From Patescibacteria group bacterium (lineage in GTDB: Bacteria > Patescibacteriota > Patescibacteriia > 2-02-FULL-49-11): DNA of 64,000 bases. The DNA is taken from positions 2,374-66,373 of the forward strand of contig JBAZQN010000008.1 of NCBI GenBank assembly GCA_041645165.1, given 5' to 3'. Positions within the stretch are counted from its first letter, which is position 1. Each line of letters starts with the position of its first letter. Under the pieces are notes generated by a model that saw only the letters and a list, made by a program, of their open reading frames with translations, searched no databases and was not told the DNA's origin. This document shows, piece after piece, positions 16,725-51,882 of this stretch. The position numbers and the translations under genes are program-made.

Positions 16725-16810
16725 AATCCAAAATCCCAATGTCAAATTTGATATTGGACATTTGAACTTGAGATTTTATTTGATATTTGGATTTTGACAT
16801 TGGGATTTAA
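16691..16810. repeat. Palindromic tandem-arm element (AAATCCCAAT / ATTGGGATTT type).
   Basis: aaatcccaaatccaaa...atccaaaatcccaatgtcaaatttgatat | atatttggattttgacattgggattt. Long imperfect palindrome. Confidence 0.7.
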
Positions 16811-28301: not shown

Positions 28302-28357
28302 TGCGCTCGGTTTTCATACCATCATGGCGTGTCATAAAAAAGAACAGTAGAGGAAAT

Positions 28358-29014: not shown

Positions 29015-29134
29015 GTTGGAATTATAACAATGTGTGATAATTTTGTCAATATTGTTATAAAATTTGCTTAATATAGTGAATCCTTATAAACTGTGCGTAG
29101 TTCTTTAAAATATGTTTAATTTAAGGAGATTTTC

Positions 29135-29737: not shown

Positions 29738-29859
29738 GTCTTTTAGACCTCGCTGGTATTACATTTTCAGGTAAGCAATTTTCCCCTAGATTTTGAAATT
29801 GATGAAGATTTTTGTTATACTGAGACTATCATTTGTTTAAACAATAATACAGAGGCCAT

Positions 29860-31119: not shown

Positions 31120-31191
31120 GAAACCCTAAAATAATGTTATGTCTATTTCTCTTGACCTTTCACCACCGCAATATTCCGACAGAAGTGGATT

Positions 31192-32337: not shown

Positions 32338-32422
32338 ACTTTGAATTACCCAAAGTAATGCACTTATTTGTATAAAATACCAATTCGACTCAGCTCACTA
32401 TGACATGAATCGCGAAACGTAA

Positions 32423-32758
32423 ATGACATCAGAAATCGCTTTAAAATTTATTTTCTTTGGCTTAATCGTCCTAGCGGTTGCTCTCGAAGTGACCGGTGAT
32501 ATTTTTTTCAAAAAATGGTCTATTGACAGTAGAAACGTTTTACTTTATTTTGGCCTTTTGATTTATTTTATTGGAACCATTTTTTGGGCGATTTCGCTGA
32601 AATATGAATATTTATCAAAAGCAATCTCTGTATTTACTGTTTTGAATTTAGTTATTGTTGCTCTTGTGGGCGTTCTCTATTTCAAAGAAGATTTGTCTTT
32701 GATAAATAAAATTGGAATCGGGTTAGGAATTTTGAGTGTTGTTCTTATTGAAATTTAA
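32423..32758 (+). CDS. SMR-family (EmrE/MdtI/MdtJ-like) small multidrug/spermidine exporter; low GC.
   Basis: 111 aa with 4 TM helices and a conserved Glu in TM1 (LAVALEVTGDIFFKKW). Confidence 0.6.
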   Translation: MTSEIALKFIFFGLIVLAVALEVTGDIFFKKWSIDSRNVLLYFGLLIYFIGTIFWAISLKYEYLSKAISVFTVLNLVIVALVGVLYFKEDLSLINKIGIGLGILSVVLIEI

Positions 32759-32768
32759 TGTGACAAAC

Positions 32769-33623
32769 ATGAGCAGTCAAAAAATTAAAATAGGCCTTGT
32801 GCAGATGCGCTGCAGTGAAAATAGCGTTAAAAATCTGGCTCATGCGATCGAGGAGATTAAGAAAACAGCGGACAGTGGCGCACAAATAGTATGTTTGCCA
32901 GAATTTTTTTTATCGAAATATTTTTGCCAAGGGCCGAAAGATGATAAAAATTTCAAACTAGCGGAACCGATTCCCGGACCGACCACTGAAGTGCTGGGGA
33001 AGCTCGCGCTTCAATATAAAATAGTCATACTCTGCTCATTGTTTGAACAAGCTGACAGAGGCAAATATTTTAATTCCATTGCGGTTATTGATACGCAAGG
33101 CAAAATCGCTGGTGTTTACCATAAAATGCACATTCCTTCAATCCCGTCGGGGCTTTACTCGGAGGATTATTATTTTCATAAAGGCGATAAAGGAGTCATC
33201 GTAGTTGATACGCCTTACGGTAAAATCGCGCCGTTGATTTGTTACGACCAATGGTTTCCCGAACTTGCGCGCATTGCAGCGGTGAAGGGAGCTCAAATCA
33301 TTTTTTATCCGACTGCCATTGGATGGCCGCACGATAATCCAAAATGGAAAAGACAAGCCGAACATGAAGCCTGGCAGATAATCCAACGCAGCCATGCAAT
33401 TGCCAATAATGTGTTTGTAGCGGCGGTCAATAGAATTGGCGTAGAGGGGGATCTGAAATTTTGGGGAACGTCGTTTGTAAGCGACCCGTATGGAAGAGTG
33501 ATTACTATGGCCGCAACAGACAAAGAAGAAAATGTGGTAGTGGAATGTGACTTAACTTTAATAGACAAAATGAGAAAAGATTGGCCCTTTTTGAAGGAAA
33601 GGAGAATTATGTGTGAAATTTAA
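32769..33623 (+). CDS. aguB: Carbon-nitrogen hydrolase; N-carbamoylputrescine amidase (AguB)-like.
   Basis: IKIGLVQMRCSENSVKNL...GAQIVCLPEFFLSKYFCQ closely resembles AguB N-termini. CN-hydrolase Glu/Lys/Cys (ICYDQWFPE) triad context. Confidence 0.7.
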   Translation: MSSQKIKIGLVQMRCSENSVKNLAHAIEEIKKTADSGAQIVCLPEFFLSKYFCQGPKDDKNFKLAEPIPGPTTEVLGKLALQYKIVILCSLFEQADRGKYFNSIAVIDTQGKIAGVYHKMHIPSIPSGLYSEDYYFHKGDKGVIVVDTPYGKIAPLICYDQWFPELARIAAVKGAQIIFYPTAIGWPHDNPKWKRQAEHEAWQIIQRSHAIANNVFVAAVNRIGVEGDLKFWGTSFVSDPYGRVITMAATDKEENVVVECDLTLIDKMRKDWPFLKERRIMCEI

Positions 33624-33696
33624 TTGTCAAATAAAGGTACATTATTTTCACGATCGTGAAAATAATTGCTCTTGTTAAAAATAACTCAATACCGAT

Positions 33697-34710
33697 ATGA
33701 GATATTTTATGCCGGCGGAATGGGAGCCTCATAAGGGTACGTGGATTGCCTGGCCGCATAACCGCGATCATTGGCCCGGTAAGTTCGATTCCATCCCTGG
33801 AGTTTTCGCTGAAATAATACAAAAACTTACAAAAAGTGAGAAAGTTTTTTTATTGGTGAACGACGATGCAATGGAACAAGAAGCTCGCCGTATATTAAAT
33901 GAAAAGAATACTTTAATGTCGCAGGTTGAATTTGTACAGATTCCCACGAATACCTCTTGGACGCGCGATTACGGTCCAATTTTTATCCGCGATACGCAGG
34001 GTAAATTAAGCGTTATGGATTGGATCTTTACTTCATGGGGAAATAAATATCCGCCGTTCGATCTTGATGATATAGTCCCGAAAAAAATATGTCAGCAATT
34101 CGAATTTTCGCTTATAGAGCCGGGCATAGTACTGGAAGGCGGGTCCATAGACGTAAACGGGAAGGGATCGTTATTGACTACCGAACAATGCCTTTTAAAT
34201 AAAAATCGCAATCCGCAGCTCAACCGCACTCAAATTGAAGTTAATTTAAAAAAATATCTCGGCGCTTCGAATATTTTGTGGCTAAAGCGGGGGATTGCGG
34301 GAGACGATACGGATGGACACATAGATGATTCAGCGCGATTTACAGATCCGTCGACTATTGTATGCGCCGTGGCGGAAAGCACAGATGATCCCGATTATGA
34401 TGTATTGCGGCATAATTATGAAGATTTAAATAAATTTCGTGATCAAGATGGAGAACCTTTTAGAGTAATTCCATTTCCAACCCCTGACCCCGTGATATAT
34501 GAAGGTCAAAGGCTTCCGGCGAGTTACATAAATTTTTACATCGCAAATAAGAGTGTACTTTTACCTACCTTTAGGTGTAAAAAAGATCAAGAAGCGCAGC
34601 GTATACTTCAAGAGCTTTTCTCCACTCGTTCCGTTATTGGTATAGATTGTACTGATCTTATCTGGGGTCTGGGGGCCATACATTGTTCAACGCAGCAGCA
34701 GCCTTTATGA
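33697..34710 (+). CDS. aguA: Agmatine deiminase (AguA; PAD_porph family).
   Basis: MPAEWEPHKGTWIAWPHN N-terminal hallmark and the C-terminal GLGAIHCSTQQQP catalytic Cys motif. Confidence 0.85.
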   Translation: MRYFMPAEWEPHKGTWIAWPHNRDHWPGKFDSIPGVFAEIIQKLTKSEKVFLLVNDDAMEQEARRILNEKNTLMSQVEFVQIPTNTSWTRDYGPIFIRDTQGKLSVMDWIFTSWGNKYPPFDLDDIVPKKICQQFEFSLIEPGIVLEGGSIDVNGKGSLLTTEQCLLNKNRNPQLNRTQIEVNLKKYLGASNILWLKRGIAGDDTDGHIDDSARFTDPSTIVCAVAESTDDPDYDVLRHNYEDLNKFRDQDGEPFRVIPFPTPDPVIYEGQRLPASYINFYIANKSVLLPTFRCKKDQEAQRILQELFSTRSVIGIDCTDLIWGLGAIHCSTQQQPL

Positions 34711-34861
34711 GCCATTTTGTCTGAAACGGCTCGAATGAATAGCTTAAATAATGAAATATAAATTACCTATCGTACATGGCGGTTTTTTTGTTTTTATGGT
34801 ACTCTGTGAGTGAAATTATTGATTAATGAGCCATTTGGCGCGAAATGGCTTGATTATAAAT

Positions 34862-37624
34862 ATGTCACTATTAACTAAAATTTTTGGCGACCCAAACGAG
34901 CGTTTTATTAAGGAAGTAACCCCACAGGTTGAACGGATTAATTCGCTTGAAGCAGAAAATAAAAAGCTCTCTGACGACGCGCTGAAGGCAAAGACGCAGG
35001 AATTTAAGGGCCGCGTTGAACAGGGCACCACGCTTGATGATTTATTACCAGAAGCCTTCGCCGCCGTGCGGGAAGCGGCGGGACGCACTATCGAACAACG
35101 CCATTTTGACGTGCAGCTCATTGGAGGCATGGCGCTTCACCGTGGCATGATCGCGGAAATGAGGACAGGAGAAGGAAAAACATTGACTGCCACGCTGCCT
35201 TTATATCTCAATGCGCTCGCAGGGAAAGGCGCTCATTTGGTCACAGTCAACGATTATCTTGCGCGTCTGCATGCGTCTTGGATGGGAAGGGTATATCATG
35301 CGCTTGGTCTTACCGTAGGCTGCACACAGCAGCAGTTAGTGTCGTATATTTATGATCCGGAAGCAAAAAAACAGGAAATCCCGAAAGACGGATCTGATGC
35401 CGAGGAAAAAGAAATTGCACGATATACCGTTGACATGGATTTTCTACGTCCCGTCACCCGTAAAGAGGCTTATGCGGCGGATATCACCTATGGCACGAAT
35501 AATGAATTCGGATTCGATTACCTGCGGGATAACATGGTAGGGGATCTTGCGGAAATGGCGCAGAGAGAATTGTGCTATGCCATTGTCGACGAGGTGGACT
35601 CTATCCTTATTGATGAGGCGCGCACGCCTCTTATTATTTCCGCTCCCGCGGAGGAGTCCGGTGATTTATATTATAAATTTGCCGATCTGGTTACGACGCT
35701 TTCCGAAGGCCCTGATTATAACGTGGATGAAAAAATGCGCACTGCAACGCTTACCGAGGAAGGCGTTCATAAAATGGAACGCGCGCTTAATATCACCAAT
35801 CTGTACGCGGAAGGAGGCTTAAATCTCGTGCATCATCTGGAGCAGGCGCTCCGTGCGCATGCGCTCTTTAAGCGCGACCGTGATTATGTGGTAAAAGACA
35901 ATGAAGTCATCATTGTGGATGAATTCACCGGCCGGCTCATGTTTGGGCGCCGTTATTCAGAAGGGCTCCATCAGGCCATTGAGGCAAAGGAAAAAGTGGA
36001 GATACAGCGCGAATCGCGTACGCTTGCCACGGTGACCTTCCAAAACTATTTTAGGCTTTATAAAAAACTCGCGGGCATGACAGGCACTGCAGTGACAGAA
36101 GCGGAAGAATTCCATAAAATATATAACCTTGATGTGGTATCGATCCCTACCCACCGCCCGATGATCCGCAAAGATTTGCCAGACCGGATTTACAAATCGG
36201 CAAATGGTAAATGGCAGTCAATAGTACAGGAGGTTAAAGTGCGCCATGAATCTGGACAACCAATTCTCATTGGCACGGTCTCCATTGAAAAAAACGAGCA
36301 TTTGTCGCATTTGCTTTCACTCGAGGGCATTCCTCATAACGTATTAAATGCTAAACGCCATGAAGAAGAGGCAAGATTCATCGCGCAAGCGGGAAAACGC
36401 GGTAGCGTGACGGTCGCTACAAATATGGCAGGGCGCGGCGTAGACATTATTTTGGGCGGCAACCCGCCGGCGGCAGATGAGGCGGCGCTCATTAAAAGCT
36501 TGGGAGGACTCCATGTGATCGGCACTGAGCGGCATGAAGCGCGGCGTATTGATAACCAACTGCGCGGACGTGCGGGACGCCAAGGCGATCCGGGATCGAG
36601 CCAATTTTTCCTTTCCATGGAAGACGACCTTATGCGCATTTTCGGTTCAGACCGCATGAAAGGGCTGATGGAGCGCATGGGTATGCCTGAGGACATGCCC
36701 ATTGAGAACCGCATGGTCTCCAAATCAATCGAATCAGCACAGAGGAAGGTGGAGGGACATAATTTCGACATCCGTAAACATTTAGTGGAATATGACGACA
36801 TTATCAATAAACACCGCGAAGTTATTTATAAAAAAAGAAGGGAAATACTCAACACTACCCAATCGCCTGACCCTTCCGCAATATCAAAAATACTGCTGAA
36901 TATGATCGAAGAAGAAATAAGCGCCGTGGTACTGTTTCATACCTCCGCACAAGCGACAGACGAATGGAATCTTGATGAGATTTATGAAACGGTTGATAGC
37001 ATTGTGCCCTTGCCGTTACAATCAAGGATTAAGATAGATGAGATACATGACGTTAAAAGTGAAAAAATGGGCGATGCGCCAAAACGAACGGCCATTGTGG
37101 GCTACCTCATGGGGTATGTTGAATCGCATTTTAAGGAATTAGAGACAAGCATAAATATCGCACTAAAATCTCCTGTATTCATAAATATCGAACGGGGCAT
37201 TCTCTTGCGCGCGATTGACACGCTTTGGATCGAGCATTTGGATGCCATGGATCACTTACGTACCGGTATTGGCCTGCGCGGGTATGGCCAGCGTGATCCT
37301 TTGGTGGAATATAAGCGGGAGTCATACCGTATGTTTACTGAATTGCTCACCGCCATTAGAAAAGAAGTGGTGTACTCTATTTTCAAAATCGGCGCTGCCC
37401 AGCGATTTGCGCAAAGCACGCTAGCGCGCGAACAGCCAATGATACTTTCAGGGCCTGCAAAAGAAATGGAACGGGCGCGCGCGGCCTCACAAGCGCAAAA
37501 CGCCGCCATATCAAAAACCACTTCATTTAATGGCAAAAAGGTGGGACGCAACGATCCCTGCCCATGCGGAGCAAAAAAACTAGATGGTACTCCGATAAAG
37601 TATAAGCACTGCCATGGGAAGTAG
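34862..37624 (+). CDS. secA: Preprotein translocase ATPase SecA.
   Basis: Start MSLLTKIFGDPNERFIKE, DEAD motor motifs (MRTGEGKTLTATLP, VDEVDSILIDEARTPLIIS) and a C-terminal Zn finger CPCGAKK...HCHGK. Confidence 0.95.
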   Translation: MSLLTKIFGDPNERFIKEVTPQVERINSLEAENKKLSDDALKAKTQEFKGRVEQGTTLDDLLPEAFAAVREAAGRTIEQRHFDVQLIGGMALHRGMIAEMRTGEGKTLTATLPLYLNALAGKGAHLVTVNDYLARLHASWMGRVYHALGLTVGCTQQQLVSYIYDPEAKKQEIPKDGSDAEEKEIARYTVDMDFLRPVTRKEAYAADITYGTNNEFGFDYLRDNMVGDLAEMAQRELCYAIVDEVDSILIDEARTPLIISAPAEESGDLYYKFADLVTTLSEGPDYNVDEKMRTATLTEEGVHKMERALNITNLYAEGGLNLVHHLEQALRAHALFKRDRDYVVKDNEVIIVDEFTGRLMFGRRYSEGLHQAIEAKEKVEIQRESRTLATVTFQNYFRLYKKLAGMTGTAVTEAEEFHKIYNLDVVSIPTHRPMIRKDLPDRIYKSANGKWQSIVQEVKVRHESGQPILIGTVSIEKNEHLSHLLSLEGIPHNVLNAKRHEEEARFIAQAGKRGSVTVATNMAGRGVDIILGGNPPAADEAALIKSLGGLHVIGTERHEARRIDNQLRGRAGRQGDPGSSQFFLSMEDDLMRIFGSDRMKGLMERMGMPEDMPIENRMVSKSIESAQRKVEGHNFDIRKHLVEYDDIINKHREVIYKKRREILNTTQSPDPSAISKILLNMIEEEISAVVLFHTSAQATDEWNLDEIYETVDSIVPLPLQSRIKIDEIHDVKSEKMGDAPKRTAIVGYLMGYVESHFKELETSINIALKSPVFINIERGILLRAIDTLWIEHLDAMDHLRTGIGLRGYGQRDPLVEYKRESYRMFTELLTAIRKEVVYSIFKIGAAQRFAQSTLAREQPMILSGPAKEMERARAASQAQNAAISKTTSFNGKKVGRNDPCPCGAKKLDGTPIKYKHCHGK

Positions 37625-41047: not shown

Positions 41048-41139
41048 GAGGGGATGGGGAGGTCTCCTTTGGAAAAAGGTGAACTCTAGGTACTTTTTTG
41101 ACTTTTTTAGAGATTTTGATACAATGCGTAAGGATTTCT

Positions 41140-42858
41140 ATGACTAATAAACAAAGGCTTTGGATGTATGTAGGGCTCATCATAGCGCTCTTTTTAATTG
41201 CACTTATTTTTGCCGCGCCTAAACTCCCCACTGCGGTTCCCGCGGCTTCTTTTTTTGCTAAATTTCCTTATAAATTAGGCTTGGATCTCAAGGGAGGCGC
41301 CCACCTTATTTACCAAGCAGACACCTCGCAAGTGCCCTTTGCAGACAAACAATCCGCAATCAACGGCGTCCGCGATGTAATCGAACGGCGGGTCAATGCG
41401 TTCGGCATTTCAGAACCTCTGGTGCAAACTAACCAATCAGGCGATGAATACCGCGTCATTGTGGAGCTTGCAGGCGTATTTAATGTTGATGAGGCGATAA
41501 AACTTATCGGAGAAACTCCGTTGCTTGAATTTAAAACGCAAAACCCCGTAGCGGATGCACCGCTTACTGAAGAACAAAAGCAACAGCTTATAAAAGATAA
41601 TGAAACAGTCCTGAAGAGCGCTCAAGAAGTACTCGTGCAATCACATGCACCCAATGCTGATTTTAGCGCATTGGCAAAACAATATTCAGAAGACCCTGGA
41701 TCCAAAGAGCAGGGAGGGGATTTAGGATGGGCAAAAAAGGGAGTATTTGTGCCTGAATTCGATAAGGCGATTTTTGAAACCCTTAAAGCAGGGGAAACCA
41801 CCAAAGAATTAGTGCAAACCCAATTCGGCTACCATATTATCAAAAAGATTGAAGAGCGCGAGGTGGAAGGCGCGGCGAAAGGTGAACCGGAAAAGGAAGT
41901 CCATGCCGCGCATATACTCCTCCGCACCATCGCTGAACAAGATATCTCATCTCAAGTTGACCCGTGGGTTAATACCGCGCTCTCGGGAAAACAACTTAAG
42001 CGCGCCAGTGTTCAATTCAACTCACAAACAGGGGAACCGAATGTCAATCTGGAATTCAATGATGAGGGATCGAAACTTTTTGCGGAGCTCACCGGCGCCA
42101 ACATCGGCAAACCTATTGCTATATTTCTTGACGGGCAGGCAATTTCAGTGCCTACGGTTCAGGAAAAAATTGAAGGCGGCAGCGCAGTCATCACCGGGAG
42201 GTTTAATATAAAAGAAGCCCGCACGCTCGCAGAACGCCTCAATGCGGGCGCGCTGCCCGTCCCCATTCATTTGATTGCGCAAACCACCGTAGGCCCCACC
42301 CTCGGTTCTTTGTCTTTAAACCAGAGCCTGCGCGCAGGTATGATAGGAATACTTATCGTAATGTTATTCATGATATTGTACTATCGTTTACCCGGCATCA
42401 TCGCTTCGTTCGCGTTATTGCTCTATGCGAGCATCGTACTTGTTCTTTTTAAACTCATACCCGTGACACTCACGCTCGCAGGCATAGCCGGCTTTATCCT
42501 TTCAGTGGGCATGGCAGTTGACGCGAATATCCTTATTTTTGAGCGTCTCAAAGAAGAGCTAAAAGCGGGAAGGGACCTGCCCACGGCCGTTGAAGAAGGC
42601 TTTAAACGCGCGTGGACCTCCATCCGAGATTCGAATTTTTCGTCTCTCATCACCTGTGCGGTCCTTATGTGGTTTGGCAGCTCTGTCATCAAAGGTTTTG
42701 CAGTTACCCTGATCATCGGTATTCTTTCATCCATGTTTACCGCCATTACCGTAAGCAGAACCATTTTAAAGGCAATCGCCTTAACCGGAGCGAAGAGGCA
42801 TTTATGGATGTTTGGTTACCACCGCATTGAGACTAAGAGTGGCGATATGAAAATGTAA
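41140..42858 (+). CDS. secD: Protein-export membrane protein SecD with an embedded PpiC/parvulin-type PPIase domain.
   Basis: SecD blocks (LGLDLKGGAHLIYQAD; ...GKPIAIFLDGQAISVPTVQEKIEGGSAVITG; 6 C-terminal TM). The inserted ~90 aa carry ...FSALAKQYSEDPGSKEQGGDLGWAKKGVFVPEFDKAIFETLKAGE...FGYHIIKKIE, the parvulin signature. Confidence 0.75.
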   Translation: MTNKQRLWMYVGLIIALFLIALIFAAPKLPTAVPAASFFAKFPYKLGLDLKGGAHLIYQADTSQVPFADKQSAINGVRDVIERRVNAFGISEPLVQTNQSGDEYRVIVELAGVFNVDEAIKLIGETPLLEFKTQNPVADAPLTEEQKQQLIKDNETVLKSAQEVLVQSHAPNADFSALAKQYSEDPGSKEQGGDLGWAKKGVFVPEFDKAIFETLKAGETTKELVQTQFGYHIIKKIEEREVEGAAKGEPEKEVHAAHILLRTIAEQDISSQVDPWVNTALSGKQLKRASVQFNSQTGEPNVNLEFNDEGSKLFAELTGANIGKPIAIFLDGQAISVPTVQEKIEGGSAVITGRFNIKEARTLAERLNAGALPVPIHLIAQTTVGPTLGSLSLNQSLRAGMIGILIVMLFMILYYRLPGIIASFALLLYASIVLVLFKLIPVTLTLAGIAGFILSVGMAVDANILIFERLKEELKAGRDLPTAVEEGFKRAWTSIRDSNFSSLITCAVLMWFGSSVIKGFAVTLIIGILSSMFTAITVSRTILKAIALTGAKRHLWMFGYHRIETKSGDMKM

Positions 42859-42981: not shown

Positions 42982-43920
42982 ATGACTATGCTTGCTATAA
43001 TCCCTAATAGAAAATACAATCTTGGATTCTCAGCGCTGCTCATAGTGCTGTCCGCTACGGCATTATTTGTGTGGGGATTAAAATTTGGCATTGATTTTAC
43101 CGGCGGTGCCATGGTAGAGCTTGAGTCTACATTAATAAATCCGCCTGCATCGTATGAAATTCAACAGAAGCTCATAAGTGATGGATTTGATGTTGCTTCA
43201 ATCCAAATGAGCAATCAAAATACGTATCTCATACGGTTAGGCATCATGGATGAAGGCGAACACCAGCGATTTACAAAGAGCATGGAGGAGAATTTTAATT
43301 CGCTGCAAAAAAGCGAGGGAGCTGACAAGGCCTATATTGAAAAGCGTTTTGAATCAATCGGTCCGACCATCAGTAATGAATTCCGACAAAAATCATATTT
43401 GGCAATCATTATTGCGCTTCTCGCAATCATCGCGTATATCGGATACTCCTTCAGGAAGGTTTCAAAGCCCGTGGCGAGCTGGAAATACGGGGTATGCGCG
43501 GTGATCGCGCTCATGCACGATGTTGCCATCCCCACAGGCATTTTTGCAGTGCTTGGACATTATGCGGGCTGGGAAGTGGATCTGCTATTCATCACGGCGC
43601 TGCTTACCGTCTTAGGGTTCTCTGTACACGATACTATCGTCGTATATGACAGGATCAGGGAAAATTTGCTAAAGATCGGAGGTCGAAATTTCGCGGAAAT
43701 AGCGAACATAAGCGTCAATCAAACCCTCGCCCGATCCATCAATACTTCCTTGGTGACTATTATCGTGCTTGCGGCTCTTTTTGTGCTTGGCGGCGAGACC
43801 ACAAGGCATTTCGTGCTTGTGCTTATCACCGGCATCGTATTCGGCACCTATTCTTCCATATTTATCGCTTCGCCTCTTTTGGTTATCTGGAACAATATAA
43901 GTCAAAAAAATAAAAAATAG
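42982..43920 (+). CDS. secF: Protein-export membrane protein SecF.
   Basis: LKFGIDFTGGAMVEL start and 6 TM helices of the SecDF family. Position after secD. Confidence 0.85.
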   Translation: MTMLAIIPNRKYNLGFSALLIVLSATALFVWGLKFGIDFTGGAMVELESTLINPPASYEIQQKLISDGFDVASIQMSNQNTYLIRLGIMDEGEHQRFTKSMEENFNSLQKSEGADKAYIEKRFESIGPTISNEFRQKSYLAIIIALLAIIAYIGYSFRKVSKPVASWKYGVCAVIALMHDVAIPTGIFAVLGHYAGWEVDLLFITALLTVLGFSVHDTIVVYDRIRENLLKIGGRNFAEIANISVNQTLARSINTSLVTIIVLAALFVLGGETTRHFVLVLITGIVFGTYSSIFIASPLLVIWNNISQKNKK

Positions 43921-43962: not shown

Positions 43963-44880
43963 TTATTCTGCGATTCCTCTCCATGCAATGCGTTGCGCAT
44001 TGCCGCCGACAGGATAGCAGGTGACCAGAGTAAGGGTAGGCGTATCACTAATGGCAAATAATCTTTTATCATCAGGATACACAACCATGGATTCAGTGAG
44101 AATATAGCGGACGAACCGCTTTTTTTTATTCTGGTAGGTATACGTAAATTCCACCGCATCTCCTTTTTTAAGATCAGGAAGATCCTTGAAGATATCAGTA
44201 TACGGGCCTTGCTGCCATACATAGTCTGAAGAATGCCCTGTGATAAAGCTGTTTCCGCGCTCACCCGGGCTGGCAGTCCCGGGATAATGGATAGCACCTC
44301 TTTTGAGATCTTGCTCTATGCGTTTAACATCATCAGATTCAGACCAAACCACAGGAGCGAGTACCCTAAGCGAGGGGATGGATATCGTAAGCGCGGGCCT
44401 CCCTTTCCCCGTGGGATCAAATCCATTTTCCACCTCAAGCCCGTCAGGAAATGTGTCTCCATCGCTGTCGGCAATGTCACTCCCTGTGCCTATAATTTGT
44501 TCTAATGCGTCACTCAAGCCGTCACTATCCTTGTCAGAGACCTTTGTGTTTTTCACTGCAAATTCAGCAGGAAGAGAACCAGCGCCCAATGGATTTTGAT
44601 TGCGTAAAATCTCATCGCCGTCATGCGTCCCATCAGCGTCAGAGTCGGGCAAATAAGTATTAGTGCCATAAAGTCGCTCTTCAGGATCCGATAAGCCGTC
44701 ATGATCACTGTCGCTCATGAATGATTCCACCCTTTCAAATGATCCTACATACGCGCGCACCGTTGACCAATTCATGATGAAAGTGGCGATGAGTCCGGTA
44801 AAGAGGGAACAGAAGATCGCAAATGTCGTTCGCGACATTTGCGGAAGTGGCAATGATGGCGTCTGTTTTAACGTTAACAT
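43963..44880 (-). CDS. Sortase-family transpeptidase with N-terminal TM and Asp-rich calcium-binding-like repeats.
   Basis: C-terminal catalytic TLTLVTCYP (TLxTC) preceded by His and Arg contexts. Four DxDxDG-type repeats (SDSDHDGLSD, DSDADGTHDGDE, DKDSDGLSD, DSDGDTFPDG). Confidence 0.65.
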   Translation of the reverse strand: MLTLKQTPSLPLPQMSRTTFAIFCSLFTGLIATFIMNWSTVRAYVGSFERVESFMSDSDHDGLSDPEERLYGTNTYLPDSDADGTHDGDEILRNQNPLGAGSLPAEFAVKNTKVSDKDSDGLSDALEQIIGTGSDIADSDGDTFPDGLEVENGFDPTGKGRPALTISIPSLRVLAPVVWSESDDVKRIEQDLKRGAIHYPGTASPGERGNSFITGHSSDYVWQQGPYTDIFKDLPDLKKGDAVEFTYTYQNKKKRFVRYILTESMVVYPDDKRLFAISDTPTLTLVTCYPVGGNAQRIAWRGIAE

Positions 44881-44890
44881 GCCTGTATAT

Positions 44891-46243
44891 TTAGACTAAC
44901 GAATTATTTTTAGTCTTGTAGAGGAAACCCAGCACACCGGCGAATATGCTGAATACCAGGATAGAGAGAAGCGCTGAAGGGCCTGTCCTTGGCGATTCTT
45001 GAATAGCTGCTCTGACACGGGGCGTACCGGAAAGGATAGTAGTAATAATCTCCGTGCTATCGATTTGATAATTCTTAGCGCTTGCACTCACGGTAAGCGC
45101 GACAGGCGTTTGATAGGGAGCATTTGAGGTCACTTGAAATACTGGATTCCATGTCCTCACTTCCCCATTATCGAGCTGATCGATTTCCCAATAAAGCGTA
45201 TTTTTTTCTTTAATCCCGCCTTGAGAATCAAGAATGTCAAAATATAAAGGGTCAAAATGAAGTGACACTAAAATACCTTCTGCGCGCGACCCTGAATAAT
45301 TAGTTACTATGATCTCGCTATTGACCCTTTCGCCACGATAAGCAGTATGCGAAGTTACTCGATATTCATTTTCGTCACTCACGAGCATGCGAACTGACAA
45401 TGAGTCATTCCCCTCAATGGCATCAAGCAGTGTTGTGCTGGTAAGGTAATCAAACCTCGTGGCATTATCCGCAGTAATAGTGACCATATTCGTCAGCTTG
45501 TCCAGTGTGGATGATCCGCGCACCCTCACCGTAACCGTCTGAATGGCTTTTTGTCCCGGATAAAAATTTCCCACACTCCAGCGCACTTCACCGGCCTGCA
45601 CCGAACCGCCTGTGCTTGTCTGAATAATATCAGCATTTTGTTCGTCAAAATCGTCTGTAAGGATCGTATTGCGTGCTATGGTATTTCCATCATTCCGGTA
45701 GGAGATGGTATAGGCAATTAAATCACCCTGCCTTACTGTATCCTTGTCTGCGCTTACGGTGGCAACCAGCACCGGCTTAGCCTGCGCAGATATATTAACA
45801 GTAGGTGTGGTAAGTGATGACACATTATCCGCGCTTAATCGCGCGAAGGCTGAAATAGTCGTAGTGCCGCTGGGCAACTGCTCTTTTATGGTGAACCAAA
45901 ACACTCTCACTTCTGTGGTTTTTTGCGTTAAACGCTCCTGAGTATATATAACCGTTCCCAAACTTTGCACCGCACTGCCAATATCATGGGGAGTAAGCAG
46001 GTGCTCGTCATAGTCCAAAATAATGCGTATGTTGTCAGCGTTTTCAAACGCGGTATTTGCATAGGTAACAGTATAACCAATTATATCACCCGGCGATGCT
46101 TCATTTTTTGTCACTGAGAGCCCCAGAGAAAGAATCGCATTCGCTGATGCGTTCGATACGAATAAAGTACTAGTGAATGCGGTTGAAATTACGGCAAACA
46201 TAGCTGCGTAAGAGAATGCCTTGTGAATAGGTATTAATTTCAT
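44891..46243 (-). CDS. Cell-surface protein with signal peptide and C-terminal sorting signal (likely substrate of the adjacent sortase).
   Basis: N-terminal signal peptide (...FVSNASA). C-terminal ...QESPRTGPSALLSILVFSIFAGVLGFLYKTKNN: xPxTG-like motif, then a hydrophobic helix and a basic tail. Repetitive beta-rich body. Confidence 0.6.
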   Translation of the reverse strand: MKLIPIHKAFSYAAMFAVISTAFTSTLFVSNASANAILSLGLSVTKNEASPGDIIGYTVTYANTAFENADNIRIILDYDEHLLTPHDIGSAVQSLGTVIYTQERLTQKTTEVRVFWFTIKEQLPSGTTTISAFARLSADNVSSLTTPTVNISAQAKPVLVATVSADKDTVRQGDLIAYTISYRNDGNTIARNTILTDDFDEQNADIIQTSTGGSVQAGEVRWSVGNFYPGQKAIQTVTVRVRGSSTLDKLTNMVTITADNATRFDYLTSTTLLDAIEGNDSLSVRMLVSDENEYRVTSHTAYRGERVNSEIIVTNYSGSRAEGILVSLHFDPLYFDILDSQGGIKEKNTLYWEIDQLDNGEVRTWNPVFQVTSNAPYQTPVALTVSASAKNYQIDSTEIITTILSGTPRVRAAIQESPRTGPSALLSILVFSIFAGVLGFLYKTKNNSLV

Positions 46244-46498: not shown

Positions 46499-47698
46499 AT
46501 GAATTCGATTCTTGAAAAAGTTCTCCTTTCTCAAGAGATTACAGAGCGGCAGAAGTTGAGCCCTGTAGATATCTGCACCCAGTTATTAAAACTGCTTACC
46601 AATCGCGAGGCAGATGTGCTTCGTTTGCGTTTTGGCCTAGACGGAAATGGCACACATACGCTTGAGATTATCGGCAAAAGGTACACAATTACAAGGGAAC
46701 GCGTACGGCAGATTGAGCATCAAAGCATCCAAAAACTTAAACAATCCAAACAGTTCCAGGAAATTTCAGAAGGCATTTCCACGCTTGTTACACATAACCT
46801 TACGCAGCACGGCGGCATGCGCCGCCAAGACGTGCTTCTTAATGACTTACTCTCGCTCTCGGGCGATTCGTCTGTTAACCGCAACTGCTTATCATTTATC
46901 ATCGAACAGCTTTTAAATACGGCCATTGAAGAAATAAAATCTGAAGCAATTCTGCCAAGCTGGAAACTGAAAGAATTTTCCTCGCAGCTTTTCACGGAAA
47001 CAATTGCATCTATCGAATCATTGTTGGAATCAAAAGGACAGCCGGTCAGCTTTGATGCGTTGCTTAATGAATTTTTGCGCAGCAATTTTTATCAGGAACA
47101 TGCGCAGGAGTACCAATCATTTGTACTCTTCTCATCATCCCCCGAACAAGATGAGCGCTCGATGGTTGAGCGCGTGCTTAATACCTACCTTGAATGCTCC
47201 ACCTCAGTGCTGCAAAATCCCTTCAATGAATGGGGAATGTCCCGCTGGCATAGCATTAAGCCAAAAAGAATGAGTGATAAAATTTATCTCGTGCTTAAGA
47301 AATACGGCAAGCCAATGCATTTTACCGAGATCACGGAGCAAATTAATAAGACTCGCTTCGACCACAAAGTGGCGCATGCGCCAACCGTACATAATGAACT
47401 TATTCTCGACAAGCGTTTTGTTCTTGTCGGAAGAGGAATATACGCGCTTCAAGAATGGGGATATAAGCCGGGCGTAGTTGCTGATGTGATCGCTTCCATC
47501 CTGAGTCGTGCGCCAAACCCTTTAAGCCGTGAGGAAATTATCGATGAAGTGCTCAAACAACGGTTTGTGAAAAAAGGCACCATTTTACTTGCATTGACGT
47601 CACATGATACTTTTTTACACCTTCCGGACGGTCGTTTTATGTTCAAAAAAATTGTCTCTCAAGCTCCGGAAACCGTCCACACAGAACAAAATAAATAA
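46499..47698 (+). CDS. Hypothetical protein with an N-terminal sigma-70 region-4-like HTH.
   Basis: EADVLRLRFGLDGNGTHTLEIIGKRYTITRERVRQIEHQSIQKLK matches sigma70_r4. The rest has no recognised family. Confidence 0.5.
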   Translation: MNSILEKVLLSQEITERQKLSPVDICTQLLKLLTNREADVLRLRFGLDGNGTHTLEIIGKRYTITRERVRQIEHQSIQKLKQSKQFQEISEGISTLVTHNLTQHGGMRRQDVLLNDLLSLSGDSSVNRNCLSFIIEQLLNTAIEEIKSEAILPSWKLKEFSSQLFTETIASIESLLESKGQPVSFDALLNEFLRSNFYQEHAQEYQSFVLFSSSPEQDERSMVERVLNTYLECSTSVLQNPFNEWGMSRWHSIKPKRMSDKIYLVLKKYGKPMHFTEITEQINKTRFDHKVAHAPTVHNELILDKRFVLVGRGIYALQEWGYKPGVVADVIASILSRAPNPLSREEIIDEVLKQRFVKKGTILLALTSHDTFLHLPDGRFMFKKIVSQAPETVHTEQNK

Positions 47699-47707
47699 AC
47701 ATTCGTT

Positions 47708-49096
47708 GTGGATATCACTATCAATCTCGCGCCTTTTTTCGATGCGGCCGCAAATAACCCACTCACGGTAGGGTGGTTTCTTCTTATCCACGGGGGATGG
47801 ATGCCTGTTCTTGTGGTAATATTGAGCACATTTTGGCATGTACGATTGCGTAATATCAGAGCAGCATACCTCCATCATCTTAACTATACAATTTTTGCAA
47901 TCGATGTTCCGAAGTTAAACGAACAATCTACCAGAGCAGTAGAGCAAATATTCGCGCAATTAGCAGGAGCGTTCTCCGGCGTTAACCTGATTGAGAAATA
48001 TATCCAGGGCAAAAATCAGGAAAGTTTCTCATTTGAAATAGTTTCTCTCGGAGGCTATATCCAATTTTTAGTGCGTACCCCAACCCATTTTCGCGATCTC
48101 ATTGAGGCGGCAATTTATGCACAATATCCTGATGCAGAAATTACCGAGGTGGAAGACTACACAGGCATGATTCCCCGGCAATACCCCTCTGATGAATTTA
48201 ATTTATGGGGCACTGAGCTCAAGCTTAACCGTAAAAGCGTGTATCCCATTCGAACCTATCCGCTCTTCGAGCACACCCTTACACAAAAATTTGCCGACCC
48301 AATGGCTGCGCTCCTGGAAATTATGAGCCATATGCACCCAGGTGAAAATATTTGGATCCAATGGGTAATTACGCCCATTGGAGACGGGTGGAAAGAAAAA
48401 GGCATCAATGAAGCGAAAAAATTGATTGGCGCACATGTAAAACAGGCGCCCACGCTTACTGCACGGGCGCTGCAACCGGTTCGCATAGTAACTGGAGGGG
48501 CAAGCGAAGTGCTCCTCCATGGATTGGGTATTTCTCCATATCATGTTGAAGGTGCGGCAGCGAAAGACATGCCAAGTCACATACAATATCTGTCTCCTGG
48601 AGAACGCGCGATCGTTGAGGCCATTGAAGCAAAAATTTCTAAAGTCGGTTTCCACGCTAAATGCCGCATTATTTATGTCGCGAAAAAAGAAATATTCGAT
48701 AAAGCGCGCGGTGTTGCGGGTATTTTGGGCGCCTTTAGCCAATTTAGCGCATTGAATCTCAACAGTTTTGAACCCGCAGGCAAGGTGACCACAAAAGCAA
48801 ATTATTTCTTCACTAAACGCAGAATCGCCAAACGCCAAAAAAAAATAGCGCGCGCATTCCGCCAACGAAGCAAAGAATTAGGATGGGGTCATGGCATGAT
48901 ATTGAATACCGAGGAATTGGCAACGGTGTGGCATTTCCCCGTTGCAGAGGTGAAAGCCCCGTTAGTGAAGATGACTGAAGCGAAAAAAGGAGAGCCCCCG
49001 GCTGAGTTGCCGATAGAAATTATGGAGCCTGCCGCAAGTGATGCACAGACATCCAAAATACAAGAAGCGGAAACGCCGGAAAATTTACCCGTATAA
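47708..49096 (+). CDS. Hypothetical membrane-anchored protein (possible partner or N-terminal module of the downstream coupling-protein-like ATPase).
   Basis: N-terminal TM (VGWFLLIHGGWMPVLVVILSTFW). Otherwise unassigned. Confidence 0.3.
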   Translation: MDITINLAPFFDAAANNPLTVGWFLLIHGGWMPVLVVILSTFWHVRLRNIRAAYLHHLNYTIFAIDVPKLNEQSTRAVEQIFAQLAGAFSGVNLIEKYIQGKNQESFSFEIVSLGGYIQFLVRTPTHFRDLIEAAIYAQYPDAEITEVEDYTGMIPRQYPSDEFNLWGTELKLNRKSVYPIRTYPLFEHTLTQKFADPMAALLEIMSHMHPGENIWIQWVITPIGDGWKEKGINEAKKLIGAHVKQAPTLTARALQPVRIVTGGASEVLLHGLGISPYHVEGAAAKDMPSHIQYLSPGERAIVEAIEAKISKVGFHAKCRIIYVAKKEIFDKARGVAGILGAFSQFSALNLNSFEPAGKVTTKANYFFTKRRIAKRQKKIARAFRQRSKELGWGHGMILNTEELATVWHFPVAEVKAPLVKMTEAKKGEPPAELPIEIMEPAASDAQTSKIQEAETPENLPV

Positions 49097-49200
49097 TCCA
49101 AAATTTAAAGTCCAAAAATCAAAATGCGAGATCAAAATGCAAAAATTTTTGATTATTAATTTTCATTTTTAGATTTTAGGTTTTACATTTTGCATTTTTA
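49085..49200. repeat. Palindromic A-rich / T-rich arm element (CAAAATGCAAAAA / TTTTTGCATTTTG type).
   Basis: tccaaaatttaaagtccaaaaatcaaaatgcgagatcaaaatgcaaaaattttt...ttttacattttgcatttttac. Confidence 0.55.
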
Positions 49201-49221
49201 CTGAATAAGAGAGGGTTCAAC

Positions 49222-51207
49222 ATGAATAACACTATGACTGATCAAATTTCCCAAAACAATGACATCTGCTACTTTGCGATGACTAATTTTCGCGGCCAAA
49301 ATCGCAAATTTGGCATACGCACTGATGACCGCCGCAAACACATGTACCTCATTGGTAAAACCGGCATGGGGAAATCAACGACCCTCGAGAATATGATCAT
49401 ACAGGATATACGCGAAGGAAGGGGAGTGGGAGTAGTGGATCCTCATGGCGATTTGGTTGAAAAAATATTGGACTATATCCCCCCGCACCGCATCAACGAT
49501 GTCATATATTTTAATCCCGCTGACATTGATTACCCTATTGCATTCAATATTCTTGAAAACGTAGATCCCCGCTATAAGCACCTTGTCGCGTCCGGACTTA
49601 TGGGAGTATTCACAAAAATTTGGGCAAATGTTTGGTCAGCACGAATGGAATATATCATGAATAATTGCATCCTCGCCCTGCTTGATTCTCCCGGCAATAC
49701 CCTTCTAGGGATCAACCGCATATTAGTTGATAAGGAATACCGGCATAAAATTGTAAGCCGCATTTTAGATCCTGTCGTGCGGTCGTTCTGGGTGAATGAA
49801 TACGCGAATTACAACGACCGATTCCGCACTGAAGCAATCGCGCCAATCCAAAATAAGGTTGGGCAATTTCTTTCGACCGCAATTGTGAGAAATATTGTCG
49901 GGCAGACGCAATCGACCATAGATATGCGGGAAATCATGGATACCAAAAAAATCCTCATCCTCAATCTTGCGAAAGGACGCATAGGCGAGGACAATTCGTC
50001 GCTTTTGGGCGCGATGATGATTACCAAGCTGCAGCTTGCAGTCATGAGCAGGGTAGATATTCCTGAAAAAGAAAGGAATGATTTCTTCCTTTATGTGGAT
50101 GAATTTCAAAATTTTGCGACGACCTCATTTTCAGACATCCTCTCTGAAGCAAGAAAATATCGCCTCTCGCTCATTATGGCGCACCAATACATAGAACAAC
50201 TTGAGGAAGAGGTGGCTGCGGCGGTATTTGGCAACGTCGGCACTATCGCCTGTTTCCGCGTGGGCGCCACCGATGCGGAAGAGCTGGTAAAGGAATTTAC
50301 CCCTTATTTCACTGAAGAAGATTTGGTAAATCTCACTAAATATGACATTTATCTGCGGCTTATGATCAACGGCGTGGCGTCAAGGCCATTTTCGGCCACG
50401 TCGCTCCCGCCGCTTCGCACCGATGAAATGACAGGGAATCGTGAAAAAGTAATCGCGGTGTCAAGAGAGCGGTATACGAAACCGCGAGAGGAAGTTGAAG
50501 AGAAAATTATCAGATGGACCGGTATAGAAGATATGTATTCCACCACTGCTGAATTGGATAATATCGCTGGTATTGCCGAGGATGAGCAGCGGTATCGCGA
50601 ACTTCCCGCAGCTCCTCTACCTACTGAAAAACCGACAAATGAACCTGCCGTTTCTCAAGGGCCAGAACCAAAAAATGCCACATGTGACAATTGCGGTCGC
50701 GGTACGCTTATCACATTTACCCCGGATGAAAAACGCAACGTATTTTGCAAAAGCTGTCTGAAAAAATTTCGTCAGGGCCTTATCGACATCACCACTTTAA
50801 AAAAACGCAATATCCCTGAAGTGTATGATGCTCCTCCTGCGCACACACAAGCCGCTCCCACAGACAATACTGCTCATAAGACACAAAGCGCCCCTGTTTC
50901 CGCAAGCCCTAATTTTGTCATACTGAAACCACCGCCCAAACTCTCTCCATCGCAGCATGATGAGCAAGTGCGAAAGATACCCATACTTCCCGTATCCTAT
51001 CCTAGTGAGTTATCGCTGCGAGACGCCCTTCAAACCGAGCCAATTCCTTTCCATAAATTACGCGGCAATAAATTAAAAAGGCGCCTTACGACAGAAACCA
51101 CGCCCTTTGAAACACAAAAAGAACCCGCTGAATATGCTCCGCCCATGCCTAAACCGCGCCATTATGTCATCAAAGGGATTCCTCCCAAAAAAGTGGTTCC
51201 ATTATAA
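49222..51207 (+). CDS. VirD4/TraD/TraG-like (type IV coupling protein-like; FtsK/HerA superfamily) P-loop ATPase with a C-terminal zinc ribbon and a Pro-rich tail.
   Basis: Walker A LIGKTGMGKST, a downstream VVDPHGDL box, Walker B FLYVDEFQNF and SLIMAHQYIEQL (T4CP-like sensor). C-terminal CDNCGRG...CKSC. Confidence 0.55.
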   Translation: MNNTMTDQISQNNDICYFAMTNFRGQNRKFGIRTDDRRKHMYLIGKTGMGKSTTLENMIIQDIREGRGVGVVDPHGDLVEKILDYIPPHRINDVIYFNPADIDYPIAFNILENVDPRYKHLVASGLMGVFTKIWANVWSARMEYIMNNCILALLDSPGNTLLGINRILVDKEYRHKIVSRILDPVVRSFWVNEYANYNDRFRTEAIAPIQNKVGQFLSTAIVRNIVGQTQSTIDMREIMDTKKILILNLAKGRIGEDNSSLLGAMMITKLQLAVMSRVDIPEKERNDFFLYVDEFQNFATTSFSDILSEARKYRLSLIMAHQYIEQLEEEVAAAVFGNVGTIACFRVGATDAEELVKEFTPYFTEEDLVNLTKYDIYLRLMINGVASRPFSATSLPPLRTDEMTGNREKVIAVSRERYTKPREEVEEKIIRWTGIEDMYSTTAELDNIAGIAEDEQRYRELPAAPLPTEKPTNEPAVSQGPEPKNATCDNCGRGTLITFTPDEKRNVFCKSCLKKFRQGLIDITTLKKRNIPEVYDAPPAHTQAAPTDNTAHKTQSAPVSASPNFVILKPPPKLSPSQHDEQVRKIPILPVSYPSELSLRDALQTEPIPFHKLRGNKLKRRLTTETTPFETQKEPAEYAPPMPKPRHYVIKGIPPKKVVPL

Positions 51208-51241: not shown

Positions 51242-51553
51242 TTGATATATATCTTATTACCTCTTAAATGTATGCCTGAATCACAGACAGAATACCAAAA
51301 TCTACTTACCGAACTAATACAGAAACAAATAGTTATCCTGGGACCCGATATTGCCATAATGAAAGCGCGTAACGTATCAGGATTATCTGTGGCAGGTGAT
51401 GGAACGGTAACTCAAATGAACGGCAATCCTCCCGACCTTATCAATCAGCTTATAGAACAATATGTCTCCCTTTCAGGCCTTATTGTAAAAAAGGCAATGG
51501 AGCCGTTATTGGCAAAATATCCTTCATTAACTATTGGGAAAAACAACTCATAG
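51242..51553 (+). CDS. Hypothetical protein.
   Basis: ORF only. The start is possibly the internal Met (MPESQTEY). Confidence 0.25.
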   Translation: MIYILLPLKCMPESQTEYQNLLTELIQKQIVILGPDIAIMKARNVSGLSVAGDGTVTQMNGNPPDLINQLIEQYVSLSGLIVKKAMEPLLAKYPSLTIGKNNS

Positions 51554-51558
51554 CGTTT

Positions 51559-51882
51559 TTGGATTTTTTAATTTATAGCATATTTTATATGACTTCAACG
51601 CTTTCGCTTATTACATTTATTTTTTGGGTTATTGCAGGAATTACGACTTTTATAGTATGCATAATGAATGCATATAAAACACGGGGAGGAAGGTTTTCGG
51701 CCGCATTTATATCGCTCGGATTCGGTACGCTTCTCCTTGCGACTTCTGCCATAATCGCTACGTTTTTTAATTCCCAGTTTGGGCAGGGTATCACGCAACT
51801 ACTGCACGATGGTGGATTTGTCATCGGATTCATCCTCGTGCTTTCCGCTTCCAATCGCTTCTTAAAGGCAATGACAGGATAA
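51559..51882 (+). CDS. Hypothetical small membrane protein (3 TM).
   Basis: Hydrophobicity. Directly upstream of the histidine kinase. Confidence 0.3.
   Translation: MDFLIYSIFYMTSTLSLITFIFWVIAGITTFIVCIMNAYKTRGGRFSAAFISLGFGTLLLATSAIIATFFNSQFGQGITQLLHDGGFVIGFILVLSASNRFLKAMTG

Follow-up and report, generated by a model that had tools for sequence, protein, structure and literature searches.

The stretch of DNA analysed here, called the window in the following, comprises 64,000 nucleotides (nt) of contig JBAZQN010000008.1 of a Patescibacteria group bacterium. It carries a module of three genes, encoding a protein with a sigma-70 region 4 domain (gene 1), a membrane protein assigned to the family DUF8128 (gene 2) and an ATPase resembling type IV coupling proteins (T4CPs) (gene 3). 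An earlier note, made from the letters of the DNA, had described this module. All three open reading frames (ORFs) were recovered with the coordinates given there, on the plus strand and encoding 399, 462 and 661 amino acids (aa) (Table 1). The note had also read genes 2 and 3 as a split coupling protein, which is very probably what they are.

Table 1 Positions of the module, its domains and motifs, and the adjoining features in the window
Feature	Position (nt)	Residues	Strand	Basis or remark
Gene 1, Sigma70_r4 + HARE-HTH protein, 399 aa	46499-47698		+	
Sigma70_r4 of gene 1	46586-46744	30-82		Pfam, 52.5 bits
HARE-HTH of gene 1	47282-47458	262-320		Pfam, 43.7 bits
Gene 2, DUF8128 family, 462 aa, GTG start	47708-49096		+	Homologues with PF26449, alignment, hydropathy, AF2
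Transmembrane helix of gene 2	47759-47839	~18-44		
AT-rich imperfect palindrome	49095-49189		.	Short A-rich/T-rich repeats; intergenic
Gene 3, ATPase, 661 aa	49222-51207		+	ORF; Pfam, NCBIfam, AF2, Foldseek, alignment
Walker A of gene 3, GKTGMGKS	49354-49377	45-52		
Walker B of gene 3, DEFQNF	50098-50115	293-298		
Zinc ribbon of gene 3, CxxC-x17-CxxC	50683-50757	488-512		Treble-clef
C-terminal tail of gene 3	50773-51204			144 residues; disordered
secD	41098-42858		+	Pfam; upstream synteny partner
secF	42982-43920		+	Pfam; upstream synteny partner
Sortase with TSP3 repeats + DUF11/CLIPPER-type surface protein	43963-46243		minus	Between secF and module

The product of gene 3 has a soluble ATPase core of the T4CP type (residues ~11-440) with an all-alpha insertion (residues ~110-235). 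Besides Walker A and Walker B, which are invariant across the homologue alignment, a DPHGD box (residues 73-77) and an AHQ motif (residues 320-322) were identified. With Pfam, TrwB_AAD_bind matched residues 35-351 with 48 bits (cut-off 20.5), and the models DUF87 (31 bits), TraG-D_C (30 bits) and T4SS-DNA_transf (24 bits) were passed as well. The NCBIfam matches to TraD, CD1115-type VirD4, CedD, VirB4 and HerA models were partial and below the thresholds. The HerA models reached 13 bits against cut-offs of 850-970, the VirB4 model TIGR00929 14.4 bits against 643, and the CedD model NF053655 30.9 bits against 600, covering residues 5-87 only, i.e. the Walker A region. Sequence matches in the PDB were obtained to TrwB and DotL only. 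An AlphaFold2 (AF2) model, built from an alignment of 28 sequences, has a predicted local distance difference test score (pLDDT) of ~80-90 across most of residues 11-440. It predicts a RecA-like core with helices 116-219 inserted between the Walker A and Walker B strands. Comparison of this model with the PDB by Foldseek gave TrwB as top hit (E = 1e-12; TM-score normalised to the target, TMt, ~0.6), followed by DotL, Cag-beta and, close below, HerA. Thus, the T4CP-like character described by the earlier note was supported against a HerA-like one, TrwB_AAD_bind scoring above DUF87 and the best PDB matches being T4CPs.

No hydrophobic segment and hence no N-terminal transmembrane (TM) anchor was detected in gene 3 by a hydropathy scan. 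The best 19-residue window, with a value of 1.5, lies within the core at residue 331, and Walker A already begins at residue 45. The lack of an own membrane anchor, as the earlier note had put it, therefore holds. Since both the fold and the PDB matches are led by TrwB and DotL, gene 3 is regarded as a T4CP-type enzyme without TM domain; by sequence and predicted fold it is a VirD4/TrwB-type ATPase. The zinc ribbon and the proline-rich tail described before are present too. The ribbon is recognised by zf_Tbcl_2 of Pfam (35 bits, cut-off 27), with which TIGR04272 of NCBIfam agrees, and the tail contains 17% proline compared to 3% in the core. In most relatives the tail closes in PGxxVxL; here it reads PPKKVVPL (window ~51160-51204). 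More than 8,000 database relatives of gene 3 were found, and the best matches, including Kuenenbacteria, Kerfeldbacteria and other Patescibacteria, are 57-88% identical.

The module could also be understood as an FtsK/SpoIIIE-like segregation or septal DNA pump, composed of a separate anchor, motor and DNA-recognition helix-turn-helix (HTH). This combination of anchor, motor and winged helix has its counterpart in FtsK, with its TM, alpha/beta and gamma domains. The ATPase superfamily is the same, and a housekeeping context and high conservation, described below, would suit such a role. However, FtsK_SpoIIIE (PF01580) reached only 13.6 bits with gene 3, under its cut-off of 24, and no match to the gamma domain was obtained with Pfam. 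Furthermore, S. epibionticum possesses a canonical essential FtsK with gamma domain, while its protein of the gene 3 type is dispensable. We consider a pump of this kind very unlikely.

Gene 2 was called a membrane protein by the earlier note. This is right for one TM helix, but the protein consists mainly of a soluble DUF8128 domain of ~370 residues, which follows the helix. There is no lysine or arginine before the helix and there are three after it. Because of this charge asymmetry and the hydropathy, the short N-terminus is predicted to face the outside and the large domain the cytoplasm. In an alignment of 31 diverse homologues, residues P18, W23, GGW29-31, G41 and W43 of the helix are near-invariant. 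Such conservation is unusual for a mere anchor, and the helix may do more than anchor the protein. The cytoplasmic alpha/beta domain closes with an ILNxEELAxxxHFP motif, and a disordered tail with EPPxxLP and terminal PPxNLP motifs follows. The consensus of residues ~410-462 (window 48935-49096) is KAPLVKKTExKKxEPPxxLP with a terminal PPxNLP[IV]. From their sequences, the tail motifs of genes 2 and 3 look like docking peptides for some partner.

The assignment of gene 2 to DUF8128 was made via its homologues and is, as a sequence-based assignment, indirect but strong. Full-length homologues with 42-85% identity carry a precomputed match to PF26449 (DUF8128). A local Pfam scan of gene 2 and 31 homologues, some of them with the precomputed PF26449 match, returned nothing meaningful, and the model is maybe absent from the copy used. 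A profile search of 1.8 billion representatives yielded 3,289 DUF8128 relatives. The top 150 of them are 343-691 aa long, a selection beyond which fused or distant members would lie. In the literature searched, no paper mentioning DUF8128 was found.

For gene 2 an AF2 model with a pLDDT of 77 and a predicted TM-score (pTM) of 0.71 was obtained, predicting a long N-terminal helix and alpha/beta domains. Its top 12 Foldseek matches in the PDB were all R388 TrwK/VirB4 chains (best E = 2.3e-5; TM-score normalised to the query, TMq, 0.35). As gene 2 has no P-loop, this likeness was read as one to the VirB4 N-terminal domain, to which the predicted structure bears a modest resemblance in fold only. 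The DUF8128 sequence profile had no match in the PDB even at E = 10. Its comparison by hhalign with TrwK/VirB4 and with TrsD of pGO1 gave no signal, so the connection to VirB4 is one of fold.

Homologues in which both halves are joined were found in two places. The first is a single open frame on L089, an uncultured IMG/VR contig, which was a partial match and the only one from the scan of viral contigs. This frame reads ILNSEELATIYHFP, corresponding to the end of DUF8128 (48% identity, E = 4e-10), and continues ~30 residues on into RHMYIIGKTGTGKS...DPHGD, which matches the N-terminal part of the ATPase (54% identity, E = 2e-30). Residues 27-66 align with 398-437 of gene 2 and residues 69-153 with 17-101 of gene 3. 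Past residue 153, right after DPHGD, the fused frame (L089 3-482) stops matching and the sequence onward differs in character. This loss could result from an assembly chimera or a gene-disrupting insertion.

The second was found when plasmids were searched by tblastn with gene 2 as query. A plasmid gene of Bacillus sp. F19 encodes a protein of 869 aa which matches both halves. Its residues 54-160 correspond to DUF8128 104-223 (E = 3e-9; hhalign probability 95.6%, E = 1.2e-8), and its residues 327-737 to 25-412 of gene 3 (28% identity, E = 6e-39). With EEMAAMMRLP the protein keeps a version of the DUF8128 motif EELATVWHFP. Genes for Replic_Relax and TcpC proteins follow it immediately downstream. 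On 64-kb plasmids of B. subtilis a version with 913 aa is followed by Replic_Relax, a TcpC-like protein, TcpE and a VirB4-like ATPase. These proteins of 869-913 aa occupy the T4CP slot of a Gram-positive conjugation module.

Where both genes are separate, they are closely spaced. In 58 related genomes with the ATPase after DUF8128, the median gap between the stop of gene 2 and the start of gene 3 is 3.5 nt; it is ≤30 nt in 47 loci, and in 9 the genes overlap. This shows translational coupling of the pair in most genomes. Because of the fused homologues and the tight coupling, gene 2 was taken as the missing half of gene 3. Both genes are described as a split, domesticated T4CP with high confidence.

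The distribution of the module was studied with the DUF8128 profile in one genome per species, loci being counted from the best 80 matches. At least 596 species genomes were found to contain a DUF8128 relative. The best 80 loci come, among others, from Kerfeld-, Kuenen-, Buchanan-, Uhr-, Falkow- and Magasanikbacteria, Paceibacter and Parcubacteria. The ATPase gene directly follows DUF8128 in 53 of 71 evaluable loci, and in 38 of 60 the distance from secF to the DUF8128 gene downstream is ≤2.2 kb. The order YkuD-SecD-SecF-(sigma4/HARE)-DUF8128-ATPase-...-MnmA was found in L001, L002 and L088, which is closely related to the window, and the window shows this frame as well. Compared with the proteins of the window, the median identity amounts to 68% (ATPase), 54% (SecD), 47% (SecF), 43% (MnmA), 42% (DUF8128) and 40% (gene 1). 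The ATPase is thus the most conserved protein of the neighbourhood. Judged by sequence and gene order, the pair is shown to be a widespread, vertically conserved core chromosomal module among housekeeping genes. In the Falkow- and Magasanikbacteria loci L061 and L078, glycosyltransferases, DUF4012 and DUF11 proteins or minus-strand genes come after DUF8128. In loci of this type the pair can be unlinked with the ATPase encoded elsewhere, or DUF8128 may have a second role.

With this synteny two proposals of the earlier note lose their basis. One was a remnant of an integrated element, considered here as a decaying conjugative one. It would agree with the nearest fused relatives on conjugative or mobilisable Bacillus plasmids and with related ATPases on plasmids of Streptomyces, Staphylococcus, Sulfolobus and haloarchaea. 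The closest plasmid ATPase, from Sulfitobacter (40% identity), stands alone beside transposases; it has no DUF8128 or sigma-like neighbour, so the module was not found there. In the window, however, the ORFs are intact with all catalytic motifs, composition across the module is unremarkable, and no flanking integrase, relaxase or repeats were found. The same secF-mnmA locus, within the YkuD-SecD-SecF...MnmA context, is shared across orders with 60-75% protein identity. The remnant is effectively refuted by this conserved synteny and hardly credible any more.

The other proposal was an FtsK/HerA-type defence ATPase, considered here as one directed against phages and related to HerA or MADS. Gene 3 matches mad8 of PADLOC (E = 4e-16) and, weakly, HerA. 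Region 4 of gene 1 resembles MzaA, and the homologue in S. epibionticum lies beside a CRISPR-Cas9 locus. The MzaA resemblance, however, is one of generic sigma region 4 only, and no nuclease (including any NurA-type partner), Sir2 or methylase was found with the ATPase. A fixed housekeeping context and a near-universal conserved family differ from patchy, fast-moving defence islands. On this genomic context the defence reading was rejected, its probability being very low. Neither a HerA-like ATPase with a NurA-like partner nor a scattering of the triad over related genomes was found, the two outcomes which the earlier note had named as speaking against it.

The conservation of the triad applies to genes 2 and 3, whose arrangement is not scattered, but less to gene 1. 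A sigma4/HARE gene lies directly before DUF8128 in 39 of 70 evaluable loci and is missing there in the other 31, and its spacing is loose (median gap 101 nt). According to the earlier note, sigma region 4 was the only recognisable part of gene 1. This has to be corrected, as HARE-HTH forms a second domain. The protein passes the NCBIfam model of the RNA polymerase (RNAP) delta subunit, TIGR04567 (45.8 bits, cut-off 42; residues 256-320), and a further possible winged helix is present at the C-terminus. The family profile matches region 4 of RpoD/SigA in the PDB (E = 1e-18), and the architecture with two domains is common to more than 7000 homologues. With Pfam and NCBIfam no sigma region 2 but only region 4 was detected. 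The NCBIfam sigma matches (RpoD region 4) cover the last 60-80 model positions only and are far under the cut-offs. Without region 2, gene 1 therefore does not encode a sigma factor. In the RNAP delta subunit (RpoE of Firmicutes), HARE-HTH is N-terminal and a long acidic tail comes next; in gene 1 the domain, which passes the delta model, is internal and the sequence after it is no acidic tail.

Both recognisable domains of gene 1 are of RNAP-associated types. Hence, a transcription-linked machine has to be discussed, in which gene 1 binds RNAP or -35-like DNA and the tethered ATPase acts on DNA-RNAP complexes, or alternatively an adjunct of Sec export. Genes of the gene 1 and ATPase types are adjacent in Kuenen-, Kerfeld-, Buchananbacteria, others and a Saccharibacterium, and SecD-SecF are directly upstream in the 38 of 60 loci mentioned. 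On the other hand, gene 1 is essential and the ATPase is not in S. epibionticum, so gene 1 works without the ATPase. It is missing at 31 loci and loosely spaced at the others, and in the window two minus-strand genes part secDF from the module. A T4CP working on RNAP or on the Sec system is not known to us. A role in transcription or Sec export thus appears unlikely. Because of its loose spacing and its absence from these 31 loci, gene 1 was not taken as a motor subunit, and the evidence does not make it one. We regard it preferably as a DNA- or RNAP-binding factor which is often linked to the pair and essential in its own right.

The palindrome between genes 2 and 3, also reported by the earlier note, is real but weak, and it lies outside the module, whose two genes are separated by 1-9 nt or overlap in most relatives. 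Its arms (49095-49137 and 49147-49189) have 43 nt each and are 72% complementary; as RNA, it folds with -25.2 kcal/mol (z = -2.15). The gap of 125 nt in the window is an outlier compared to the median in the 58 other genomes. In L088 the gap has 136 nt and likewise holds an AT-rich hairpin, though a different one (z = -1.77), and more distant relatives have no gap. A scan of the gap in the window for canonical terminators was negative. The palindrome is a generic intergenic element specific to this lineage and possibly modulates read-through into gene 3. Similar AT-rich palindromes are located at 16692-16808 (56-nt arms, 77%) and 12629-12726 (39-nt arms, 77%). The Rfam scan of the whole window gave no match.

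Among the adjoining genes, the sortase and surface protein between secF and the module are kept in L088 and absent in L001 and L002. Two small ORFs follow the ATPase, 51242-51553 (103 aa) and 51559-51882 (107 aa, with hydrophobic segments), and precede a GAF/PAS histidine kinase and a response regulator. This pair is kept in L088 (93 and 97 aa) and not in more distant loci. A run of agmatine/polyamine type (26892-37624) comprises genes for an Orn/Arg decarboxylase, a deoxyhypusine-synthase-like protein, a CN hydrolase and an agmatine deiminase. It is followed by secA (34826-37624), so that the distance from the module to the upstream genes secA, secD and secF is at most ~9 kb. The SufB ORF at 33-1604 contains a LAGLIDADG_3 homing-endonuclease domain (residues 146-228) before the SufBD core, which suggests an intein-type insertion. 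The type IV pilus genes, with which the earlier note had supposed a cooperation, are found at 6792-15590. They are ~31-40 kb away from the module, and no evidence for a link was obtained. Its statement that the window has no relaxase, VirB4 or other type IV secretion system (T4SS) part was borne out, as no such gene and no integrase occur among the larger ORFs scanned. The flanks of L001-L003 and L088 likewise contain no relaxase or mating-pair-formation genes.

No paper describing this operon was found in the literature, but genes of its ATPase type were surveyed by Quiñonero-Coronel et al. (2025; PMC12102498). Of the 3,035 Patescibacteria genomes in that survey, 2,918 contained VirD4-type homologues, 5,713 in total, of which only 148 were encoded close to virB4. 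In comparison, 2,417 genomes had VirB4, and relaxases were almost absent. According to these authors, exaptation of the T4CP cannot be excluded; its neighbours were not described there (PMC12102498). Genetic data are available for S. epibionticum ML1 (Wang et al. 2023, PMC10633639). Its protein SEML1_0294 (349 aa; Sigma70_r4 27-72, HARE-HTH 225-283), with one tri-helical and three winged domains according to the tables, is essential by transposon sequencing (Tn-seq). The directly downstream SEML1_0293 (921 aa; TrwB_AAD_bind 402-719) is non-essential (PMC10633639). The region SEML1_0289-0298 is situated between a type II CRISPR-Cas9 locus and topA/dprA (PMC10633639 tables). The T4CP-like SEML1_0142, the canonical FtsK with gamma domain and the T4SS genes are essential in this species, and ComEC and DprA are dispensable; ComFA and secDF are not listed in the genome tables (PMC10633639). 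The ~360-400 unannotated N-terminal residues of SEML1_0293 are presumably a fused DUF8128. Thus, the pairing of a gene 1 protein with this type of ATPase probably extends to Saccharimonadia, with a putative fused form.

These data bear on the question if the pair is the coupling protein of the chromosomal T4SS of Patescibacteria, a system with its genes elsewhere, in many cases close to dnaA. The pair would then recruit effectors or cargo injected into, or extracted from, the host. The ATPase belongs to the T4CP family, and the predicted fold of gene 2 resembles VirB4, an inner-membrane component of T4SS. The T4SS is near-universal in the phylum with T4CP genes often away from virB4 (PMC12102498). 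However, the T4SS of S. epibionticum is essential and the 921-aa ATPase-type protein is not, and the essential SEML1_0142 is a better candidate. T4CP homologues also occur in more genomes than VirB4 (2,918 and 2,417), and the conservation of the ATPase is far above that usual for secretion components. A coupling protein of this T4SS is therefore rather improbable.

For genes 2 and 3 we propose a domesticated coupling-protein ATPase that is used as a membrane-tethered, DNA-handling motor, an overall picture to which we give an even chance. The DUF8128 subunit, held in the membrane via its conserved N-terminal helix, would dock the ATPase at the inner membrane face and would tether, perhaps gate, the ATPase ring there. 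VirB4 is docked in a comparable way by VirB3 and its own N-terminal domain, and classical T4CPs by their TM domain. The ring would bind and pump a polymer, most likely DNA, that is passed to or taken from an envelope conduit. Candidates for this conduit would be the relaxase-less T4SS of Patescibacteria or the pilus/ComEC uptake route. DNA is suggested because of the function of the family, the relatives encoded next to relaxase-type genes, the zinc ribbon, the HTH partner and the precedent of CedD described below. This substrate is held with much less confidence than the identity as split T4CP. As the gene is dispensable in S. epibionticum, like comEC and dprA, the activity would be accessory and not essential, e.g. 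in DNA uptake or exchange. Gene 1 would have a wider, essential role and may direct the motor to DNA or control its activity.

Several points weigh against this proposal. T4CPs recruit proteins as well, and DNA would be the substrate here by analogy. A physical interaction of the gene 2 and gene 3 products is suggested by the fusion and the coupling of their genes, and the ATPase is not adjacent in 18 of the 71 evaluable loci (Magasanik- and Falkowbacteria types). The predicted structure points weakly to VirB4, by fold only and with a TMq of 0.35. No T4SS, relaxase or comEC gene was detected in the scanned ORFs of the window or in the three flanks with domain lists (L001-L003), and no conduit is linked to the locus. 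The secDF synteny is not explained by a DNA motor, and this conserved linkage hints at a membrane or secretion role instead. Finally, the fused DUF8128 of SEML1_0293 is only presumed.

A more far-reaching version of the domesticated motor can be given only tentatively, and we regard it as doubtful when all its parts are taken together. The DUF8128-ATPase pair would be a phylum-wide, T4SS-independent machine, a DNA motor docked at the membrane that arose by domestication of an ancient conjugative T4CP. In organisms unable to make nucleotides, it could supply the cytoplasmic pulling motor that is missing for DNA uptake. The essential sigma-region-4/delta-like protein would work with this motor and mark DNA or RNAP. 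If true, coupling-protein ATPases would gain a new functional class. The ultra-small Patescibacteria account for a large share of bacterial diversity, and for most of their conserved genes no role is known. A near-universal orphan VirD4-like gene (~96% of Patescibacteria genomes; PMC12102498) is now given a partner, DUF8128, as the other half of one ancestral protein, as well as a plasmid-borne fused relative and a recurrent neighbour. The fused plasmid relative places its origin in monoderm conjugation systems. The neighbour of the gene 1 type is essential in the one genetically tractable species, for which knock-outs and transformation assays exist. Furthermore, the locus is a possible evolutionary bridge between the architectures of T4CPs and VirB4.

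In comparison with the T4CPs VirD4, TrwB, TraD, DotL and Cag-beta, gene 3 shares the P-loop core with Walker A and B, the all-alpha insertion and TrwB_AAD_bind. In contrast to them, its polypeptide has no N-terminal TM domain, in place of which a separate DUF8128 protein is encoded, and a zinc ribbon and a proline-rich tail are added at the C-terminus. The module also differs in its conserved chromosomal housekeeping context without adjacent relaxase or T4SS genes. The closest arrangement on plasmids is that of the Bacillus proteins annotated as DUF87 domain-containing, LIT25_27705 (CP085711, 869 aa) and KJP42_RS21280 of B. subtilis (NZ_OX419568, 913 aa). Both modules are found there in identical order, with a shared EE(L/M)A..(H/R)(F/L)P motif and an ATPase 28% identical over ~410 residues. 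Unlike genes 2 and 3, they are one polypeptide without N-terminal TM helix and zinc ribbon, and they are encoded on plasmids next to conjugation genes.

From HerA/DUF87 ATPases gene 3 is distinguished by its DUF87 score (31 bits), which is lower than that of TrwB_AAD_bind, by the absence of a nuclease neighbour and by the rank of HerA below the T4CPs in the fold search. VirB4 with VirB3 resembles the pair in the combination of a membrane-associated N-terminal module with an ATPase of the FtsK/HerA superfamily. In pGO1, the small gene trsD directly upstream of the VirB4-like ATPase gene (TrsE) was reported to be remotely related to the VirB4 N-terminus (PMC12102498). Neither gene 2 nor gene 3, however, is similar to VirB4 by sequence, and gene 3 has the all-alpha domain of the T4CP type.

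CedD, a chromosomal VirD4-like ATPase, is required for DNA import in Sulfolobales, and some orthologues have no TM domain (PMC11823120). Like the module, CedD/TedD are chromosomal VirD4-like ATPases outside a conjugative element and are encoded away from their partners (PMC11823120). Gene 3 is not a member of this family (30.9 bits compared to a cut-off of 600); no DUF8128 partner was reported for CedD, and the Ced system is archaeal and induced by ultraviolet light. The locus SEML1_0294/0293 of S. epibionticum differs from the window by the larger ATPase of 921 aa with a putative fused N-terminus and by secDF not being listed in the tables of that genome. It has in common with the module a Sigma70_r4 + HARE-HTH protein directly upstream of a TrwB_AAD_bind ATPase, and among member-like loci genetic data exist for this one only.

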